Shown in pieces: positions 29,500 to 49,291 of a stretch of DNA of 64,000 bases. The stretch spans positions 32,001 through 96,000 of IMG/VR virus record IMGVR_UViG_2940244548_000002. One strand, given 5' to 3'. The notes beneath the pieces are model-generated. The model worked only from the letters and a program-made list of their open reading frames with translations. It was not told the DNA's origin and searched no databases. Position 1 is the first letter of the stretch. The number at the start of each line of letters is the position of its first letter. The DNA is from a virus (taxonomy: Duplodnaviria > Caudoviricetes). The position numbers were made by a program, and so were the translations under genes.

Positions 29500-31479
29500 A
29501 TGGTTATTCGATTTTTAAGATTAAAGATGCTCAATTTTAAGGGCGTGCTGGGAGAAAGGGAGATAATATTTAATCCTCAATTAACCCAGATATTAGGTGC
29601 AAATCGCACAGGTAAAACAACTATCCCAGATGCAGCCTTATGGTGTTTATTTGGTAGAAACAGCGAGGATAAAGCGGATTTTGGTATTAAAACACGTGAT
29701 AAAAATGGTGCATTCATTCCAGAGTTATCGCATGAGGTTGAGCTATTTATAGAAGTGGACGGCAAAGAGGTAAGCCTAAAACGTTGCTGGGTTGAAAAAT
29801 GGAGTAAGCCAAAACAGCAAGAGGATAAAGTATTAACTGGGCATACAACCAATTATTTTGTAGATGGTAATAAATATACCGAAACAGAATATAAAGAATA
29901 TATTGAGAGCCTTTGCCCAGAGAGCCTGTTTAGAGTAATTACAAACCCTGCATTTTTCCCAAGTTTGGAGGCTGGCAAACAACGTGCTTTGCTTACTAAA
30001 ATGGTTGGAGAGGTAAGCAATGAAATGATTGCAGAGGGTAAGCCAGAATTTATGGCTATGCTGGAAGAGCTGGATGGGCGTACATTGGAGGCTTTTTTGC
30101 AACACCTATCCTATAAGAAAAAAGGGGTAAAGGATGAGTTGGATAGAATACCTATACGCATTAAGGAGCAAAAAGACGAGATAGTAAAAATTACTCCAGA
30201 GGATACCAGCTGGGAAAAGCTGGAGGGTGATATAACGGCTGCTGAAAATGCCATTGAGCGCATTGATGAAGAGGTTGCAGACCGTAGCAAAACTTTGGAT
30301 ACAGACTATGAGGCAAAAGCTACCGAGCGGAATGCAATTAACAAATTGCGAGAAAAAGTACAAAGCATTGAGTTTGAAGCACGCCAAACATACAACAATG
30401 CCAGCCGTAACAGAACCAATGCTATCCGAGAAGCCGAAAACTCTCTACAGGACACAGAAAGAGAGATTAATACCCAGAAAGGCAGAAAAGAGAGTGCAGA
30501 ACGTGCGCTAAATAGCCTAGAGCAAGAAAAGGCTGATTTTCGTAACCGTTGGCAACTAGTGAACGATGAGGAGTTTATTATTAATGATAATGAGCTTATT
30601 TGCCCTACCTGCAAACGTAGGCTGGAGGAAACAGATGTGCAAGAGAAATCTAGCACTATGGAGGAGAATTTTAACCGTACCAAATCGGGTAAAATAGAGG
30701 CTCTGGAGATTGAAGCTGAACAGCTTAAAAAACGTGGCAATGGCTATAACGATACTATAGCCGAATGCAACAAAAAAATCCAAGAACTAGAGAACCTGCT
30801 ACCTGCCAAAAAACAAGCTGTAGCTGATGCAAAAGCCATTGAGTTGCAAAGCGAGGAAAGTATATTGCAAGGTAACACAGAACTGGTAGAACTAAAAAAA
30901 GAGATTGAAACACGCACAACTGCACTGGATACCCCAAATGCTGCCAGTGAGGAGGTGCAAACTGGCATTAACGCTCTAAAGGGAGATAAAAAACAGCTTC
31001 AAGATAAGGTTGATAGCCTTAAAAAGCAACTTTATGTACGTGAAACTATTGCAAACAAAAACGCACGTATCAAAGAGCTGGAGGGGCAAGAAAAAACTCT
31101 TAACCAGCAACTATCCGAGCTTGAAAAGAAAGAATACACTGCACAGGAGTTTACCAAAGCTCACATTGTAGAGCTGGAGGGTAAAGTTAATGCTCTTTTC
31201 CTAAATGTACGTTTTACCATGTTCGACCACAAGTTAAATGGAGCTCTAAAGCCTATTTGTGAGTGTACGGTGGGCGGTGTACCCTACAGTGATCTAAATA
31301 ATGCAGACCGCATTAATGCTGGTATAGATATAATCAATGCGATTTGCCGATTTAACAACGTATATGCTCCATGCTTCATAGATAATGCAGAGAGTATTAA
31401 CGATGTAATGCCTATGGATAGCCAAGCTATTCACCTTATTGTGAGCAGAGATAAAGAGCTAGTAATAATCAACAATTAA
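29500..31479 (+). CDS. Rad50/SbcC-like ATPase
   Basis: NFKG, GANRTGKTT, coiled coil with CPTC hook, FIDNAES. Confidence 0.88.
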   Translation: MVIRFLRLKMLNFKGVLGEREIIFNPQLTQILGANRTGKTTIPDAALWCLFGRNSEDKADFGIKTRDKNGAFIPELSHEVELFIEVDGKEVSLKRCWVEKWSKPKQQEDKVLTGHTTNYFVDGNKYTETEYKEYIESLCPESLFRVITNPAFFPSLEAGKQRALLTKMVGEVSNEMIAEGKPEFMAMLEELDGRTLEAFLQHLSYKKKGVKDELDRIPIRIKEQKDEIVKITPEDTSWEKLEGDITAAENAIERIDEEVADRSKTLDTDYEAKATERNAINKLREKVQSIEFEARQTYNNASRNRTNAIREAENSLQDTEREINTQKGRKESAERALNSLEQEKADFRNRWQLVNDEEFIINDNELICPTCKRRLEETDVQEKSSTMEENFNRTKSGKIEALEIEAEQLKKRGNGYNDTIAECNKKIQELENLLPAKKQAVADAKAIELQSEESILQGNTELVELKKEIETRTTALDTPNAASEEVQTGINALKGDKKQLQDKVDSLKKQLYVRETIANKNARIKELEGQEKTLNQQLSELEKKEYTAQEFTKAHIVELEGKVNALFLNVRFTMFDHKLNGALKPICECTVGGVPYSDLNNADRINAGIDIINAICRFNNVYAPCFIDNAESINDVMPMDSQAIHLIVSRDKELVIINN

Positions 31480-31490
31480 TTAGTAATAAC

Positions 31491-32444
31491 ATGGGAAATG
31501 ATGCCAACAATGCTGGTGGTGCAAATACGCAGGCACAGCAACAAACGCTTACTCAAAACGCAGTAGCATTAAAAAAATTTCAAGAGGAAACAACCGAGCA
31601 GGTACTAGCTAAGATTACCCTCATGCAAGAGGCTGGAGCTATCAAATTACCTGCTAATTATTCGGCTGGCAATGCTGTTAAACTGGGATGGCTTTACCTT
31701 ATGGATGTAAAGGACAGGAATAATAAGCCAGCTGTAGAGGTTTGTACACGTGAAAGTATCTGTAATACCTTTTTTAAGATGGTTATTAAAGGGCTATCTG
31801 TAGCGAAAAAACAATGCTATTTCATTGTTTATGGCAACCAGCTAACTCTACAGGAGGATTACAGAGGTAATCTAATGATAGCAAAGCGGGATACTCCTAT
31901 AGCCGATGTAAACCCACAAGTAATTTACGAGGGCGACAATTTTGTATATACGGTTGATGAAAATGGTTTGTACCAGCTGGTGAAGCATGAGACCAAACTA
32001 GAGAACATTAACATAGACAAAATTACTGGAGCTTATGCAGTAGTTATAAATAAAGATGGCTCGAAAAGGCTGGAAATTATGACTATAGCACAAATCCGTA
32101 ACTCATGGACGCAAGGTGCTGCTGGTGGCAAAAGTGGTGCGCATGTAAAGTTTACAGACCAAATGTGCAAGAAAACAGTTATCAACCGAGCATGTAAAAT
32201 TGAGATTGGCAGCAGCGATGATAGCGCAATTATGGGAGATGATGATGATGTGGATGCAGTACTAGATATACCAGTAGAAGAAAGAAAGAGCGCACTGGAG
32301 CAAGGTACTACAATAGTGGATGCAACGGATATTACCTATGAGGAAGTAAAAGAAACTCCAGAAGCTACACCTACAGCGGAAGCCCCCCAGCCAGAGCAAA
32401 CAGCAAAAGGTACAAAAGGCACACAAAAAGATTGCCCAATTTAA
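31491..32444 (+). CDS. recT: RecT-family recombinase
   Basis: GL...KKQCYFIVYG, YRG, FTDQM.KKTVI.RA.K. Confidence 0.9.
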   Translation: MGNDANNAGGANTQAQQQTLTQNAVALKKFQEETTEQVLAKITLMQEAGAIKLPANYSAGNAVKLGWLYLMDVKDRNNKPAVEVCTRESICNTFFKMVIKGLSVAKKQCYFIVYGNQLTLQEDYRGNLMIAKRDTPIADVNPQVIYEGDNFVYTVDENGLYQLVKHETKLENINIDKITGAYAVVINKDGSKRLEIMTIAQIRNSWTQGAAGGKSGAHVKFTDQMCKKTVINRACKIEIGSSDDSAIMGDDDDVDAVLDIPVEERKSALEQGTTIVDATDITYEEVKETPEATPTAEAPQPEQTAKGTKGTQKDCPI

Positions 32445-32457
32445 TAAGTAGCAGATA

Positions 32458-33189
32458 ATGGAACTAAAGATACTAGGCAGCTCCTCACATGGGAACGGAT
32501 ATATACTGGAGGCAGATAATGAGGCTCTGATTATAGAGGCTGGTGTTAAGCTGCTGGAGGCAAAGAAAGCCATAAATTTCAACCTTTCCAAAGTAGTGGG
32601 CTGCTTAGTATCTCACCAACACAACGACCATGCTGGCAATGCTCTGGAGTATGCCAGTGCAGGTGTAATCGTGCTAGCCTTGCCAGAGGTAATAATAGCT
32701 AAAAATATAGAGCGGAATTATAAAACGATTGAGTTTGGGAAAGGGTACAAGATGGGTAATTTCAAGATACTACCTTTTGAGCTTATGCACGATGTACCAT
32801 GTGCAGGTTTTTTAATTGAGCATCCCCAGAGCGGAAAAGTGCTGTTTATTACCGACACATACGCATGCAAGTATAGGTTTACAGGCTTATCCCACATACT
32901 TATCGAAGCCAATTACGCAGATGATATTTTAACAGATAATATACTGGAGGGTAGATTACCACAAGTAATGCGCAAAAGACTATTAACAAGCCACATGGAG
33001 ATAGAGAGTACAAAAGAGTTTTTGCGCTCCAGCGACTTAAAACAGGTACGCAATATTGTATTACTCCATTTAAGCGATGGAAATAGTAACGAAAAGCGGT
33101 TTGTTGATGAGTGCAAGGCTGTTACTGGGAAAAAGGTAGTAGCTGCTAATGCAGGGATGGTTATACAATTTGGAGCTTTACCATTATGA
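32458..33189 (+). CDS. Metallo-beta-lactamase-fold nuclease
   Basis: GSSSHGN, SHQHNDH, HD, TDT, EANY, SHM, HLS. Confidence 0.9.
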   Translation: MELKILGSSSHGNGYILEADNEALIIEAGVKLLEAKKAINFNLSKVVGCLVSHQHNDHAGNALEYASAGVIVLALPEVIIAKNIERNYKTIEFGKGYKMGNFKILPFELMHDVPCAGFLIEHPQSGKVLFITDTYACKYRFTGLSHILIEANYADDILTDNILEGRLPQVMRKRLLTSHMEIESTKEFLRSSDLKQVRNIVLLHLSDGNSNEKRFVDECKAVTGKKVVAANAGMVIQFGALPL

Positions 33190-37820: not shown

Positions 37821-38498
37821 ATGGGATTAAATAATTCAAAAGGCAATATGTATGATTTTGTAACTCATACATGGAACGCAATAAAAGGAGCATGTTTGCA
37901 TGATTGCTCATATTGTTATATGAAGCGGTGGGGCAAATTAAATCCAGTACGGTTGGATGAGAGCGAGTTTAAGACAGATTTGGGAGCTGGCAACTTCATT
38001 TTTGTTGGTAGCAGCTGTGATATGTTTGCAGAGGATATACCAGAGGAATGGATACTAAAAGTATTAAACTTTTGCTATCAGCATGACAACAGGTACTTAA
38101 TCCAATCAAAGAACCCTGCAAGGATTTTAGAGTTTATCAATCATCCCATTTTTTCAAAGAAAGCAGTTGTATGTACTACTCTGGAGAGTAATGTTTTTTA
38201 TCCAGAGGTAATGAAAAACTCTCCTGCACCATTAGATAGAAGTGCAGCAATGAGCCAGATAAGCCATTGCGGTGTACCTACCTATGTTACCATTGAGCCA
38301 ATAATGGAGTTTAGCAGCCTAGTGCTATTTTCTGAAATGATTAAACAATGCAATCCAGTACAGGTAAATATTGGAGCTGACAGCGGGAATAATCACCTAC
38401 CAGAGCCCTCTATTGAAAAAATAGAGGAGCTAATAAATGCAATAAAAGAGTTTACAACAATTAACCGTAAAAGTAACTTAAAGAGAATTTTAAAATAA
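37821..38498 (+). CDS. Radical SAM protein, DUF5131 (Gp37/Gp68)-like
   Basis: TWN...G.C.H.CSYCY, IFV.S..D.F, SKNP, IEP. Confidence 0.8.
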   Translation: MGLNNSKGNMYDFVTHTWNAIKGACLHDCSYCYMKRWGKLNPVRLDESEFKTDLGAGNFIFVGSSCDMFAEDIPEEWILKVLNFCYQHDNRYLIQSKNPARILEFINHPIFSKKAVVCTTLESNVFYPEVMKNSPAPLDRSAAMSQISHCGVPTYVTIEPIMEFSSLVLFSEMIKQCNPVQVNIGADSGNNHLPEPSIEKIEELINAIKEFTTINRKSNLKRILK

Positions 38499-45440: not shown

Positions 45441-45480
45441 AAGGCGTGTATATATATCACGCCTTTTTTATTTCCTTTGC
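45441..45480 (+). promoter_or_regulatory. Late promoter box AAGGCGTG-N9-CACGCCTT upstream of the MTase-SpeD-terminase operon
   Basis: Palindrome; one of six YGTG-N9-CACG boxes in prophage 2. Confidence 0.65.
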
Positions 45481-45514: not shown

Positions 45515-46936
45515 ATGAAAGCAGAGAAAGTGTCTTTGGGTAAGATTGTCTTAAACGACAGCAACCCACGAACAATAACGGACGAGAAGTTTATAAAGCT
45601 GGTAGAGAGCATCCTAGTATTTCCTAAAATGCTGGAGTTACGCCCAGTGGTGCTGGATGAGAACTACATAGCACTGGGTGGTAACATGCGTACACGTGGG
45701 CTGCAATGGATAGTAACAGCTACACAAACGCAGATTGAGGAGCATTTACAACGGCAAAGCAAATACAGGCTCTTAACCGAGTATGAGCAACAGCAGCTTA
45801 TAAACTTCTGGCTGGAGTGGAAGAGAAACCCAATGGTTTACTGTGTGTTTGCTGATGATTTAACAGAGGATGAGCGTAACGAATTTATCGTAAAAGATAA
45901 TGTTGGCTTTGGTAGCTGGGATATGGATATACTGGCTAATGAGTTTGATGAGCAGTTGCTACTTGATTGGGGTATGGATGTTTGGCAAATGGATGGTGGG
46001 GATGATAACGGAGCTGGAGGCAAAGAGAAGCATGGCAGCCTACTGGATAAGTTTGTTGTTCCTCCATTTACGATACTGGATACTAGGCAGGGCTACTGGA
46101 GAGAACGTAAAGAGGTTTGGCGGGCACTCATAGATGATAATGGAGAAAGCAGGGAGGGTACACTTGCAAACGGTGAAACAAACTGTATGGCATCCATAAA
46201 CAATGGGGTTTCGCTCCTTGACCCAGTAATGGCAGAGATTGTTTGTAGGTGGTTTGGCATTGAGGGTGGCAAAGCCTTTGATTGTTTTGCGGGTGATACA
46301 GTATTTGGATATGTAGCAGCTACTCTGGGGCACTCCTTTACTGGCATAGAGTTAAGAGAGGAGCAAGCAGCATTAAACAATGAGCGGGTTGCTGGTATGA
46401 GTGCAGAGTACATTTGCGATGATGGGCAAAACGTATTAAAGCACATAGGCAAAGGTACACAGGATTTGCTGTTTAGTTGTCCTCCCTACTTTGATTTGGA
46501 GGTGTACAGCGATAAACCGAACGATGCCAGCAACCAGAGCACCTATAAGGGCTTTTTGGAGATACTGGATAAAGCATTTACCGATGCTCTGGTGTGCCTT
46601 AAAGATGATAGGTTTGCTGCCATTGTAGTTGGAGACATCCGAGATAAGCAAACTGGCTTTTATCATGATTTTGTTAGCGACATCAAAGATATATTTAAGC
46701 GCAATGGTGCTCCTCTCTATAATGAGATGATAATTATTGAGCCCATAGGCACATTACCCCAGCGTGTGCAGCGATATATGAAAAACCGAAAGGTCGGCAA
46801 ATGCCATCAGAATGTACTGGTATTCTACAAAGGCGACCCAGATAAAATTAAGGATAACTATAAACTTATTGAGTATGCAAGCGAAGATTTGGAATCATTC
46901 GGCATGGATAACGGAGACAGCACCAGCGAAGATTAA
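45515..46936 (+). CDS. ParB-like N-domain fused to N6A/N4C-type methyltransferase fold
   Basis: NPR.I, LGGNMR, IVKDN; motif I DCFAGDT; GIELR; motif IV SCPPY. Confidence 0.85.
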   Translation: MKAEKVSLGKIVLNDSNPRTITDEKFIKLVESILVFPKMLELRPVVLDENYIALGGNMRTRGLQWIVTATQTQIEEHLQRQSKYRLLTEYEQQQLINFWLEWKRNPMVYCVFADDLTEDERNEFIVKDNVGFGSWDMDILANEFDEQLLLDWGMDVWQMDGGDDNGAGGKEKHGSLLDKFVVPPFTILDTRQGYWRERKEVWRALIDDNGESREGTLANGETNCMASINNGVSLLDPVMAEIVCRWFGIEGGKAFDCFAGDTVFGYVAATLGHSFTGIELREEQAALNNERVAGMSAEYICDDGQNVLKHIGKGTQDLLFSCPPYFDLEVYSDKPNDASNQSTYKGFLEILDKAFTDALVCLKDDRFAAIVVGDIRDKQTGFYHDFVSDIKDIFKRNGAPLYNEMIIIEPIGTLPQRVQRYMKNRKVGKCHQNVLVFYKGDPDKIKDNYKLIEYASEDLESFGMDNGDSTSED

Positions 46937-47153
46937 GGCAGAGTTTAATGCCATACTAAAGCAAAGCGGATTTAAGGTACTGGAGCTAACAGAGCACCAT
47001 TTTAACCCACAGGGCTATACAGCACTATGGCTACTGGCAGAAAGCCATTTTGCTGTACATACTTTCCCAGAGTACGGTAAAACCTACATTGAGCTATCAA
47101 GCTGCAATATGGAGTATTACGCAAAATTCATTGAGCTAACAAAGGATTTGTAA
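46875..47153 (+). CDS. speD: S-adenosylmethionine decarboxylase proenzyme (minimal class 1b)
   Basis: HF.PQG.T...LLAESH...HTFPE......SSC. Confidence 0.88.
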   Translation: MQAKIWNHSAWITETAPAKIKAEFNAILKQSGFKVLELTEHHFNPQGYTALWLLAESHFAVHTFPEYGKTYIELSSCNMEYYAKFIELTKDL

Positions 47154-47154
47154 C

Positions 47155-47820
47155 ATGGATACCCAAGAGTTAAACAATAGACAACAGCGGAAAGGCAGGC
47201 AGATAAAGCAGGCTAGACTGGAGATAGTGGCTGAACTCTACAAGAGGGGTAAGAGCATCAGGCAGATTGCAAAAGAGGTAAAGGTACGGCTGAACTTAGA
47301 TAAAATGCCCAGCACGCAAACCATATTTGCCGATACACAGCTATTACTTAAAGAGTGGAGAGAGTACCGAATAACCAACACAGATGAGCTGGTACAGCTG
47401 GAGCTGGAGCGCATAGATGATGCCATTGTTGAGCTCTGGGATGCATGGAATAAAAGCAAGCAGGATTACCAAGCATCCAACCGCAAACAAAAAGCCCAGA
47501 TTGAGAAAGCAGGTAAGGAGAAAGGGGAAGATGGAGAGCCCAAAGGTAAAGACGGCAAGGTTACTCCATACTATCTGGAAGAGGGCAAAAAGGAGGTACG
47601 CAAATATGGTGATGTTAGCTACATATCCGAGATAAGGCAACAGCTCCAAGAGAGGCGCAAACTACTGGGCTTGTACGCTCCAGATAAGAGAGAATTAACA
47701 GGGGCAAATGGCAAGCCGTTAAACCCACCACAAAGCCAAATTAACTTAGATGAGCTAACAGAGGAAGAGCAAAATGTATTGTTCCAGATAGCATTAAAAC
47801 GTGAGCGGAAGCAACAGTAA
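47155..47820 (+). CDS. Terminase small subunit
   Basis: N-terminal HTH, ERRKLLGL.AP...ELTG.NG.PL; precedes TerL. Confidence 0.75.
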   Translation: MDTQELNNRQQRKGRQIKQARLEIVAELYKRGKSIRQIAKEVKVRLNLDKMPSTQTIFADTQLLLKEWREYRITNTDELVQLELERIDDAIVELWDAWNKSKQDYQASNRKQKAQIEKAGKEKGEDGEPKGKDGKVTPYYLEEGKKEVRKYGDVSYISEIRQQLQERRKLLGLYAPDKRELTGANGKPLNPPQSQINLDELTEEEQNVLFQIALKRERKQQ

Positions 47821-49291
47821 CATAGTAATTGATGATGCACTACTAGATAATATACAAGCTAAAATGTGCAAAAAACGCTTTTACCATTTCGTAGAAGCGT
47901 TTTGGAGCATTATTATACCAGAAGAGCCTGTATTTAATTGGCACATTGAGTATCTGTGTGATGAGCTGCAAGAATTGGCATACTATATAATAAACAGATT
48001 GCCAAAGCCTTACGATTTAATAATAAACATTCCCCCCGGTACAACAAAGAGTACCATTGTTACCATAATGTTCCCTGCATGGCTCTGGACTGTGGATGCC
48101 AGATTGCGGGTTATTAGTAGCTCTTATTCCTCCGATGTGAGCCTAGACCATGCACAGAAGAGTAAGGATATTATCACAAGTGATAAGTACCAGAGGCTAT
48201 TTCCAGAGGTACAAATACGTAGGGATAAATCAGGTAAGGGGTTCTATGGTAACATCTCTGGAGGTGAGCGTTATGTAACATCTACTGGCTCTGCTGTTAC
48301 AGGTAAGCACGCCCATGTAATTATCAATGACGACCCCCAGAACCCAAAACAGGCAGAGAGTGATGTAATGAGGCTACAAGCCACCGAGTTTACAAAAACG
48401 CTATCCACACGTAAAGTAAACAAGAAAAACACTCCTACCATAACCATTATGCAGCGATTGCATGAGGATGATGTTACAGGGTATTTGCTCAAAAAGAAAG
48501 GCGAAAAGATAAAGCACATTTGTTTGCCAGCAGAGCTAAGCGAGCATGTAAAACCAGTGGAGCTAAGAGAAAAGTATGTCGATGGGCTGCTAGACCCTGT
48601 ACGGCTAGATAAGGAGGTTATAGAGGAAGCACGCACTGATTTGGGTACAAGGGGATTTGCGGGGCAATATGAGCAAACACCAGCCAGTGATAAGGGTAAC
48701 ATTATTAAAAAAGAATGGTTTGGGCACATATCTCTTGCCCAGTTCCTTGCTGTGCGTGGTGGTGCTCCCATGCACTTTTTCATTGATACAGCATACGATG
48801 AGAAAAAGAAGAAAACAGACAACGACCCCAGTGGTATTCTGGCAGCATGTAAAATCGGAAACCAGCTATTCATTTACCATGCCCAAAAGGTATGGAAAGA
48901 GTTTCCCGACCTCATACGCTTTTTGCCAGAGTATTGCGATGCGTGGGGATACGATGGGCGTAGCACGTTACGCATTGAGCCCAAAGCCAATGGTAAGAGC
49001 GTGGTGCAACAATTAAGAGATAGTACAGACTTGAATGTAACAGAAACACCAACCCCAATAGACAGCAAGGCTACAAGGCTAAAAACCGCTAGCCCTAAAG
49101 TTGAGTGTGGGCGTGTGATTTTGGTAGATGGTGATTGGAATGAGGATTTTGTAGAGGAAATATGCAAGTTCCCAAGTATGACACATGATGAGTATGTGGA
49201 TATACTTTACTATGCTATTGAGTACTTCCTATTGAATGACTTAACATTACCAGAGGGCATATCTAAATCATCGTTTGGGGGGCTTTTATAA
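47801..49291 (+). CDS. Terminase large subunit
   Basis: IPPGTTKS, TG, INDDP, MQRLH.DD, QY.Q.P, FP...HDE.VD. Confidence 0.95.
   Translation: MSGSNSNIVIDDALLDNIQAKMCKKRFYHFVEAFWSIIIPEEPVFNWHIEYLCDELQELAYYIINRLPKPYDLIINIPPGTTKSTIVTIMFPAWLWTVDARLRVISSSYSSDVSLDHAQKSKDIITSDKYQRLFPEVQIRRDKSGKGFYGNISGGERYVTSTGSAVTGKHAHVIINDDPQNPKQAESDVMRLQATEFTKTLSTRKVNKKNTPTITIMQRLHEDDVTGYLLKKKGEKIKHICLPAELSEHVKPVELREKYVDGLLDPVRLDKEVIEEARTDLGTRGFAGQYEQTPASDKGNIIKKEWFGHISLAQFLAVRGGAPMHFFIDTAYDEKKKKTDNDPSGILAACKIGNQLFIYHAQKVWKEFPDLIRFLPEYCDAWGYDGRSTLRIEPKANGKSVVQQLRDSTDLNVTETPTPIDSKATRLKTASPKVECGRVILVDGDWNEDFVEEICKFPSMTHDEYVDILYYAIEYFLLNDLTLPEGISKSSFGGLL

Follow-up and report, generated by a model that had tools for sequence, protein, structure and literature searches.

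A ParB-fused transferase overlapping a minimal SAM decarboxylase in a prophage terminase locus points to a possible new DNA modification that draws on decarboxylated SAM

The transferase-SpeD locus

The window analysed here is a stretch of 64,000 nucleotides (nt) from an IMG/VR virus record (IMGVR_UViG_2940244548_000002, positions 32,001 to 96,000), and belongs to contig C3 of a bacterial genome of 4.58 Mb that is 100% complete. Directly before its terminase genes lie two overlapping genes, one for a ParB-fused transferase with an amino-methyltransferase fold and one for SpeD, a minimal decarboxylase of S-adenosylmethionine (SAM; Table 1). The best reading of these genes is that they form a two-gene DNA-modification module, and their sequences suggest that they make a DNA modification not described before, from decarboxylated SAM (dcSAM). 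To our knowledge, the only role described for dcSAM is to donate aminopropyl groups in polyamine synthesis. An earlier note, made from the letters of the window alone, had described speD as overlapping the methyltransferase-fold gene by 62 nt with both genes directly ahead of terS and terL, and the open reading frames (ORFs), Pfam and PHROGs agree with that arrangement. The phage genes around the module include RecT, an SbcC-like ATPase, a single-stranded DNA-binding protein, a RuvC-like resolvase and the terminase, and Muribaculum intestinale is the species named for close homologs of the transferase. The setting is the ParB-terminase (ParB-TerL) locus of a temperate Bacteroidales phage, here a prophage. 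This locus is recognised as a hotspot in which DNA-modification genes gather, which are thought to act at packaging.

The transferase matches phrog_498 at 3.7e-114. Its N-terminal domain is ParB-like (phrog_620, 1.1e-11; phrog_940, 1.6e-10; PF02195 is precomputed for close homologs), and its C-terminal domain is a class-I methyltransferase fold belonging to what we call the ‘GD’ clade. Pfam N6_N4_Mtase (PF01555) is detected at 31.7 bits against a cut-off of 26.7, as a partial match over residues 317-457 that covers model positions 2-123 only, and a Pfam search of the protein found no match to PF01564 (spermidine/spermine synthase). The AlphaFold2 (AF2) model has a mean confidence (pLDDT) of 85.9, with values above 90 across residues 1-120 and a disordered linker at residues 158-174. 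Its top Foldseek matches are the amino-methyltransferases Trm11, TrmN, TrmM and TTHA0409. The full model contains two domains, which lowers the TM scores and returns generic amino-methyltransferases, and the search is thus uninformative on pocket geometry. The motif order is unpermuted, with motif I before motif IV, the opposite of the beta-class enzyme TTHA0409. Motif IV reads CPPY, in which Cys replaces the usual D/N/S and aligns with the Ser of SPPY in TTHA0409 and phiCTP1. Transferase homologs number 5,921 at E<=1e-10 and are abundant in gut, marine and soil viromes, and the literature searched held no assay for any member of this ParB-methyltransferase family.

The speD ORF opens at 46812, but homologs share a later start (MQAKIWN), at an ATG that lies 62 nt within the transferase gene and gives a protein of 92 amino acids (aa). 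The protein is recognised by Pfam AdoMet_dc (PF02675; 58.9 bits, cut-off 25) and phrog_27309 (1.7e-46), and scores below equivalog level against NCBIfam TIGR03330 (49.1, cut-off 75.65). The earlier note had seen an intact E-S-H self-cleavage motif. This motif, E56-S57-H58 at 47040-47048 with the pyruvoyl-forming site E56-S57 at 47040-47045, is invariant in 29 transferase-adjacent SpeD homologs, as are H62 (47058-47060) and C77 (47103-47105). SpeD aligns to residues 26-86 of the Thermotoga maritima SAM decarboxylase (AdoMetDC) structure 1tlu with the ESH motif, the processing His and the catalytic Cys all matched, and its AF2 model (pLDDT 95.8) has solved bacterial AdoMetDCs as top Foldseek matches (1vr7, 1tlu and 2iii; TM 0.65-0.72). 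The C-terminal ~35 residues of the canonical enzyme are missing. The nearest characterised SpeD, from Croceibacter phage P2559S, is 59% identical. In E. coli that lacks its own speD and co-expresses E. coli speE, it brings spermidine back (Li et al., PMC9992855), and it is therefore a genuine AdoMetDC. Several other phage SpeD homologs have become Arg or Orn decarboxylases (PMC9992855), and the P2559S enzyme, coming from the same gene pair, supports by proxy the earlier note's view that the window's SpeD acts on SAM instead. By analogy with this ortholog, which does so in vivo, we regard it as nearly shown that the window's SpeD self-processes at Glu56-Ser57 and turns SAM into dcSAM.

Table 1. 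Features of the module and its immediate surroundings in the window
Feature	Position	Strand	Basis or remark
GC-stem hairpin GGCGTG...CACGCC followed by T6	45443..45469	+	sequence inspection; between the RuvC-like gene and the module
ParB-fused transferase with amino-methyltransferase fold, 473 aa	45515..46936	+	ORF list, Pfam, PHROGs
ParB/Srx-like N-terminal domain, residues 1-155	45515..45979	+	phrog_620, phrog_940
Motif I FDCFAGDTVFG, residues 255-265	46277..46309	+	D261 = 46295-46297; F264 = 46304-46306
Motif IV FSCPPY, residues 320-325	46472..46489	+	sequence
SpeD, predicted minimal class-1b SAM decarboxylase, 92 aa	46875..47153	+	Pfam, PHROG
terS-like gene, helix-turn-helix (HTH) N-terminus	47155..47820	+	begins two bases past the end of SpeD
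terL, large terminase	47801..49291	+	phrog_38 (5e-88); Terminase_6C and Terminase_6N

The transferase and SpeD are paired across phages

Three ways of collecting loci agree on how closely the two genes are associated. When 75 IMG/VR loci were seeded with the window's SpeD (36-71% identity), the transferase or its C-terminal end was found immediately upstream on the same strand in all but one (L073, in which SpeD lies at the contig edge), with spacings from -68 to +89 nt. Seeding with a transferase alignment, blind to SpeD, in viral and genome collections recovered 97 loci with motif I ending in FAGGSVRG, 5 with GGEQTKG and 9 with FAGD..F.; SpeD is present at seven of the nine FAGD..F. loci and at none of the others. 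Seeding by a degenerate DNA pattern for FD.FAGDTVFG alone gave 74 usable loci; SpeD adjoins the transferase in 71 of them, and in one more it follows a broken ORF.

Clustering the 318 loci at 90% identity left 204 clusters (Table 2). An adjacent SpeD accompanies Asp261 in 72 of 76 clusters, 71 of which carry Phe264 and one of which is D/I, and accompanies any other residue at this position in 0 of 128. That FAGD should covary with an adjacent speD, and FAGG with its absence, had been set as a test beforehand by the earlier note, and the covariation holds across the 204 clusters. The pairing is far beyond chance and close to obligatory.

Table 2. Transferase residues 261/264 and presence of an adjacent SpeD, in clusters
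Residues 261/264	With SpeD	Without SpeD
D/F (one cluster D/I)	72	3
D/K	0	1
G/R	0	119
E/K	0	6
other	0	3

The pair is also mobile as a unit. Among 35 dereplicated loci, the upstream neighbours belong to at least 15 families, and the terS genes downstream come from three families that are unrelated to one another. In 12 of 33 dereplicated loci, the terS after SpeD is of the window's family. Hosts of the pair are found among Bacteroidota, Alpha- and Gammaproteobacteria, and in one Gracilibacteria genome. In Candidatus Gracilibacteria GN02-873 (L227:3001-4762), the ORFs of the D261-type transferase and of SpeD are both fragmented under translation table 11, as is expected if the host reads TGA as sense.

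Some lineages have added to the pair. In one lineage only (L006-L014: L006:1494-2519, also L007-L012 and L014), a 341-aa homolog of the SAM synthetase MetK, with all three S-AdoMet_synt domains detected, overlaps the start of a D261-type transferase, which makes the order MetK-transferase-SpeD-terS-terL. This addition fits a module with high cofactor consumption. In two other loci, a GNAT acetyltransferase is fused to the C-terminus of the transferase: one of them (L279:181-1953, P0051) keeps D/F and has the SpeD ORF next, and the other (L004:1-1512) has D/K and lacks SpeD. Beside the L004 transferase is a gene for a 383-aa protein that contains a PP-loop-like SGKDG motif and matches nothing in Pfam or PHROGs. 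It is only suggestive that a GNAT would have a natural substrate if the product of the transferase bears a primary amine.

Two residues of the cofactor loop follow SpeD

In an IQ-TREE phylogeny of 139 unique transferase domains, all D261 sequences form one clade (SH-aLRT 96), which is sister to a small E261/K264 (‘GE’) clade and stands apart from the G261/R264 group. Transferase domain identity within the D261 clade falls to ~35-45%. When 38 domains of the D-clade are set against 95 of the G-clade, only seven positions discriminate. Position 261 is Asp in 100% of the former and Gly in 100% of the latter, and position 264 is Phe in 95% of the former and Arg in 99% of the latter; by sequence position, the other five flank the cofactor-binding motifs, upstream of motif I (206, 210 and 235) or between motifs I and IV (275 and 299). 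Neither clade varies in motif IV (C322-P-P-Y325) or at ~50 further positions of the core. We rejected the Cys of CPPY as a marker of SpeD-linked enzymes, as this variant is family-wide and found in both clades.

The earlier note had correctly placed motif I, DCFAGDT, at 46280-46300 (residues 256-262) with an Asp after its conserved Gly. Compared with the FxGxG loop that accommodates the amino-acid moiety of SAM, FAGDT is without the last Gly and has an Asp in the loop, and R264 of the SpeD-less relatives is lost. D261 falls on the x between the second and third Gly of GxGxG, as in the GGGDG of spermidine synthases, an equivalence of motif register and not of structural superposition. In spermidine synthases, this Asp binds the dcSAM amine and disfavours SAM (PMC3725402). 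The methionine-end cofactor loop thus appears to lose a cation and gain an anion exactly where the partner gene would remove the carboxylate of the cofactor.

The host has no recognised use for decarboxylated SAM

The earlier note recognised no spermidine synthase in the window, and this absence extends to the host: a profile search of the whole 100%-complete genome found no PF01564 (Spermine_synth). The sole PF02675 in the host genome is the prophage SpeD, and the host encodes a full-scoring carboxy(nor)spermidine decarboxylase, NspC (507 bits). Host spermidine is probably made by the dcSAM-independent NspC route, which is typical of gut Bacteroidales. SpeD was not found in eight other sampled genomes of the window's order. 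Given the NspC route and the lack of PF01564, dcSAM in this host would have no known consumer other than, as we infer, the product of the overlapping gene. Three alphaproteobacterial genomes with the pair likewise have no SpeD besides that of the prophage.

About a fifth of the sampled Bacteroidota genomes have a SpeD of their own. In six Bacteroidota loci (L249, L250, L251, L252, L259 and L274), full-length matches to canonical host SpeD lie within open frames of 430-446 aa, which suggests a SpeD fused to another domain.

Related systems and precedents

The overlapping pair of the window is also present in a cultured phage, Croceibacter phage P2559S, as gp66-gp67. The transferases are 47% identical and the SpeD proteins 59%, while motif I (FDCFAGDTVFG) and FSCPPY are identical. 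In P2559S, gp66 is annotated merely as hypothetical, and the work on gp67 treats it as a polyamine enzyme and leaves the neighbouring gene undiscussed (‘methyltransferase’ occurs 0 times; PMC9992855). Stutzerimonas phage ZRG1, likewise cultured, encodes the same pair as a ParB-domain protein and an AdoMetDC. The nearest relatives that lack SpeD are the ParB-TerL methyltransferases of Listeria phage B054 (gp77), Enterococcus phiFL3A (gp36), Fusobacterium Funu2 and halovirus HCTV-2 (gp11). At ~35-43% identity, they share with the window's enzyme its architecture, pre-terminase position, motif IV and core residues, but differ in motif I, which reads DPFAGGSVRG (G261/R264), and in having a SpeD neighbour in 0 of 119 clusters.

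A parallel in logic comes from Synechococcus phage S-B43, in which CmoA makes carboxy-SAM (Cx-SAM) for the methyltransferase homolog CmoX, and one Arg of CmoX recognises the extra carboxylate (PMC12783734). In both cases, a phage SAM-tailoring enzyme is joined by a DNA-acting (in the window, putatively so) methyltransferase-fold enzyme with a charge-complementary pocket residue; in the window, the gene next to the transferase very probably produces a modified SAM, and its presence goes with the changes in the pocket of the transferase. Homology is not expected from such a likeness. The proteins are unrelated, the cofactor is Cx-SAM and not dcSAM, the product is a C5-cytosine carboxymethyl group and not a modified exocyclic amine, and CmoA-CmoX is experimentally proven whereas the window's pair is known from sequence.

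A change between the two kinds of transfer also has precedent. Plant putrescine N-methyltransferase (PMT) evolved from spermidine synthase (SPDS), and the change of the Gly-loop from GGGDG to GGGIG, together with one or two neighbouring residues, turned aminopropyl transfer from dcSAM into methyl transfer from SAM on the same bound amine, with the sulfonium substituents rotated (PMC3725402). The window's enzyme has D261 in the equivalent register of FxGxG. It differs in its lack of a PF01564 match, in an acceptor site formed by a (D/N/S/C)PPY base-binding motif, and in the direction of the change, which would run from methyltransferase to aminopropyltransferase. The precedent makes this reverse switch chemically reasonable in an amino-methyltransferase whose acceptor site is unchanged. 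We had also considered the argument that aminopropyl transfer needs another acceptor site, and dropped it because SPDS and PMT share their acceptor site for both transfers (PMC3725402). A search of open-access papers and bioRxiv found no publication on dcSAM-dependent DNA modification or on aminopropylated DNA.

A proposed model for the pair and its alternatives

In the reading that we favour, SpeD would supply dcSAM to an overlapping, cofactor-switched DNA transferase. The change from R264 to Phe would remove the basic residue that pairs with the carboxylate of SAM, and the change from G261 to Asp would place an acidic residue at the spot in the Gly-loop that in spermidine synthases binds the amine of dcSAM and keeps SAM out, while the base-binding motif IV and the remaining catalytic core would be kept. 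The ParB domain would tether the transferase, and exocyclic amino groups of the phage DNA would be modified late, around packaging. The most likely product would be an N-(3-aminopropyl) base, with methylthioadenosine (MTA) as the by-product. We favour this product because a plain methyl mark needs no second, and sometimes third, gene, as more than 100 sister lineages manage with SAM; because the genes are late; because MetK and GNAT have been recruited in some lineages; and because the SPDS/PMT switch needs only pocket changes.

These parts of the model are held with different confidence. We consider it rather probable that the transferase uses dcSAM, which would couple the two genes. That it moves an aminopropyl group to DNA is a more tentative proposal, to which we give slightly less than even chances; both the transferred group, aminopropyl or methyl, and DNA as the acceptor are what we infer. 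In its fullest form, the model would make the GD-clade enzyme the first nucleic-acid aminopropyltransferase, producing N6-(3-aminopropyl)adenine or N4-(3-aminopropyl)cytosine at packaging with dcSAM from its own mini-SpeD, and so a new cationic natural base, which some lineages would extend to hypermodification through MetK supply and a fused GNAT that acetylates the amine. This version is a little more doubtful again. The earlier note's proposal of a dcSAM-using DNA transferase is thus partly borne out: the covariation of motif I with speD, a nearest SpeD that is an AdoMetDC and a host without an aminopropyltransferase speak for it, while the origin in a single clade and an acidic residue 261 that is not diagnostic alone qualify it.

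Several observations weigh against the model. Because the D261 clade is monophyletic, the covariation reflects a single ancestral event retained through deep divergence and not repeated convergence, and no statistic of independent events can be claimed for it. The SpeD proteins are too short to give a resolved tree; in it, a branch separates the linked SpeDs, which may share one origin, from the SpeDs of Bacteroidota hosts. SpeD is missing from the D261 lineages L191/L221 and L327/L350 (both D261/F264) and L004 (D/K), and was not found in the metagenome-assembled host genomes of L191 and L221 when these were searched. L191/L221 and L004 are nested in the D261 clade and are therefore SpeD losses; L327/L350 turned up later and stand outside the 139-domain tree. 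The GE clade, which is without SpeD, is also acidic at position 261 (Glu261 with Lys264), and together with L004 it indicates that an acidic residue 261 is compatible with SAM use when residue 264 stays basic. The sharper signature is that position 264 is no longer basic (R/K to F). The 92-aa SpeD is 14 aa shorter than the 106-aa P2559S enzyme that was tested, and a polyamine role is possible in hosts with SpeE, since the P2559S enzyme restored spermidine in E. coli co-expressing speE. Finally, all support for the function of the transferase is comparative.

In the main alternative, what the transferase moves would be a methyl group, with dcSAM as a private donor for methylation of N6 of adenine or N4 of cytosine, and with SpeD also lowering SAM for host Type I/III restriction-modification, BREX and methylases. 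The covariation and the pocket evidence are common to this reading and the one we favour, and the catalytic motif IV is unaltered. In Klebsiella, unrestrained SpeD activity is known to lower SAM and to make a Type I-like restriction barrier weaker (PMC12456054), and at ordinary DNA methyltransferases dcSAM is a competitor of SAM (PMC6429523). We nonetheless think a private methyl donor unlikely, as its benefit is unclear when more than 100 related lineages presumably methylate with a SAM-type enzyme and no extra gene, and as it gives the GNAT fusion no role. The pair also sits in a late packaging operon, whereas a drain directed against restriction of incoming DNA should act early, and the SAM synthetase added in one lineage opposes depletion. 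The same two points weaken the alternative that the earlier note had raised, a SpeD that drains SAM, and they also count against SpeD being an anti-defence SAM sink only, beside a methylase adapted to scarce SAM and abundant dcSAM. Phage enzymes that degrade SAM are an established strategy against restriction (PMC7877911), and the Klebsiella speD/speE genetics fit such a sink (PMC12456054). T3 SAMase, a functional analogue of such a sink, and the Svi3-3 SAM lyase are likewise phage enzymes acting on SAM in restriction evasion, but they destroy SAM early in infection and have no product-using partner, and Svi3-3 does not bind dcSAM. Decarboxylation is moreover a slow, stoichiometric way to remove SAM, and selecting SAM amid excess dcSAM should strengthen carboxylate recognition, yet the clade lost R264; we regard a mere sink as highly improbable.

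The two genes might also be neighbours with unrelated functions. SpeD would then be an auxiliary metabolic gene for polyamines, in line with its current annotation, and the transferase an orphan DNA methylase of the ordinary SAM-dependent kind; the changes in motif I would be drift, and the adjacency inherited synteny. SpeD is described as the commonest phage polyamine gene, and the P2559S enzyme does restore spermidine in E. coli (PMC9992855); the tracing of the association to one clade, the four D261 clusters without SpeD and the SpeD that about a fifth of Bacteroidota genomes have of their own point the same way. Against this, the window's host is without an aminopropyltransferase and uses the NspC route, so that dcSAM cannot feed spermidine there, and the genes stay adjacent, and often overlapping, while both flanks turn over. 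Drift also leaves it unexplained that both fully discriminating residues sit in the methionine-moiety loop, with a cation lost and an anion gained. On balance, chance neighbourhood seems improbable to us. There is a still smaller chance that the acceptor is not DNA and that the pair is a non-canonical aminopropyltransferase system whose substrate is RNA, a protein or a polyamine. Among solved structures, the nearest folds are those of the tRNA amino-methyltransferases Trm11, TrmN and TrmM, a substitute spermidine or norspermidine synthase is conceivable in a host without SpeE, and a fused GNAT could acetylate a polyamine. However, nearly all family members have a fused domain of the ParB DNA-binding type, the gene is always in the ParB-TerL locus beside the terminase, the base-flipping-type [ST]CPPY motif is invariant and host spermidine already comes from NspC.

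If the favoured model of dcSAM use is true, a dcSAM-using DNA enzyme would be a new cofactor route for nucleic-acid modification and would probably make a new positively charged base. The commonest phage ‘polyamine’ gene would then have to be reread, with at least the short SpeD lineage acting as a supplier of cofactor for DNA modification and not as a metabolic booster. Because the family is abundant, such a mark would affect restriction evasion, base-calling of viromes by nanopore and single-molecule real-time (SMRT) sequencing, and phage engineering. D261/F264 versus G261/R264 is a compact and testable specificity switch, and the cultured phages P2559S and ZRG1 carry the pair.

Surroundings of the module and variants within the family

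The hairpin between the RuvC-like gene and the module looks like a terminator (Table 1). It was missed by a consensus scan because its loop is 9 nt, and its position implies that the module probably opens a new transcription unit running into terS/terL. The earlier note had placed the module behind a ‘late box’, which does not hold up as a repeated element of the window: the 20-mer just upstream of the transferase gene has one exact copy and one match with three mismatches there, and no convincing second copy. A sigma-70-type scan of the window is uninformative for a Bacteroidales host. The best PHROG of the terS-like protein, phrog_645, is labelled ‘RNase E’, a label that looks wrong given the HTH N-terminus and the place of the gene between SpeD and terL.

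The GE clade (motif I DPFGGEQTKG, motif IV TSPPY) has a conserved downstream partner of its own, which often overlaps the transferase stop. It is seen at L087:3351-3866 (Clostridium phage phiCTP1 gp52), L127:4343-4834, L144:4310-4792, L181:3966-4499 and L219:3099-3932, and is ~160-177 aa long in four of the five; the frame in L219 is open for 277 aa. These partners share a CFSCGNA...G.DVL.I motif, have no Pfam or PHROG match and may be another clade-specific accessory enzyme.

Two G/R-type transferases are unusually long, at 812-829 aa: those of Erythrobacter phage ZS04 (L082:2228-4666) and Pseudanabaena phage Pam4 (L088:1574-4063). About 320-340 residues separate motif I from motif IV in these proteins, versus ~65 normally, and tblastn matches them in two or three pieces. 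An intein or an inserted domain could account for the extra residues. In Pam4, the transferase gene is annotated as a pyridoxal phosphate (PLP)-dependent enzyme.

Elsewhere in the window, 29500-33189 and 37821-38498 hold a recombination module, made up of RecT, an SbcC-like AAA_23 ATPase and a protein with a metallo-beta-lactamase fold, and also a DUF5131 gene of the Gp37/Gp68 type, which is radical-SAM-like and belongs to the early region of the prophage.

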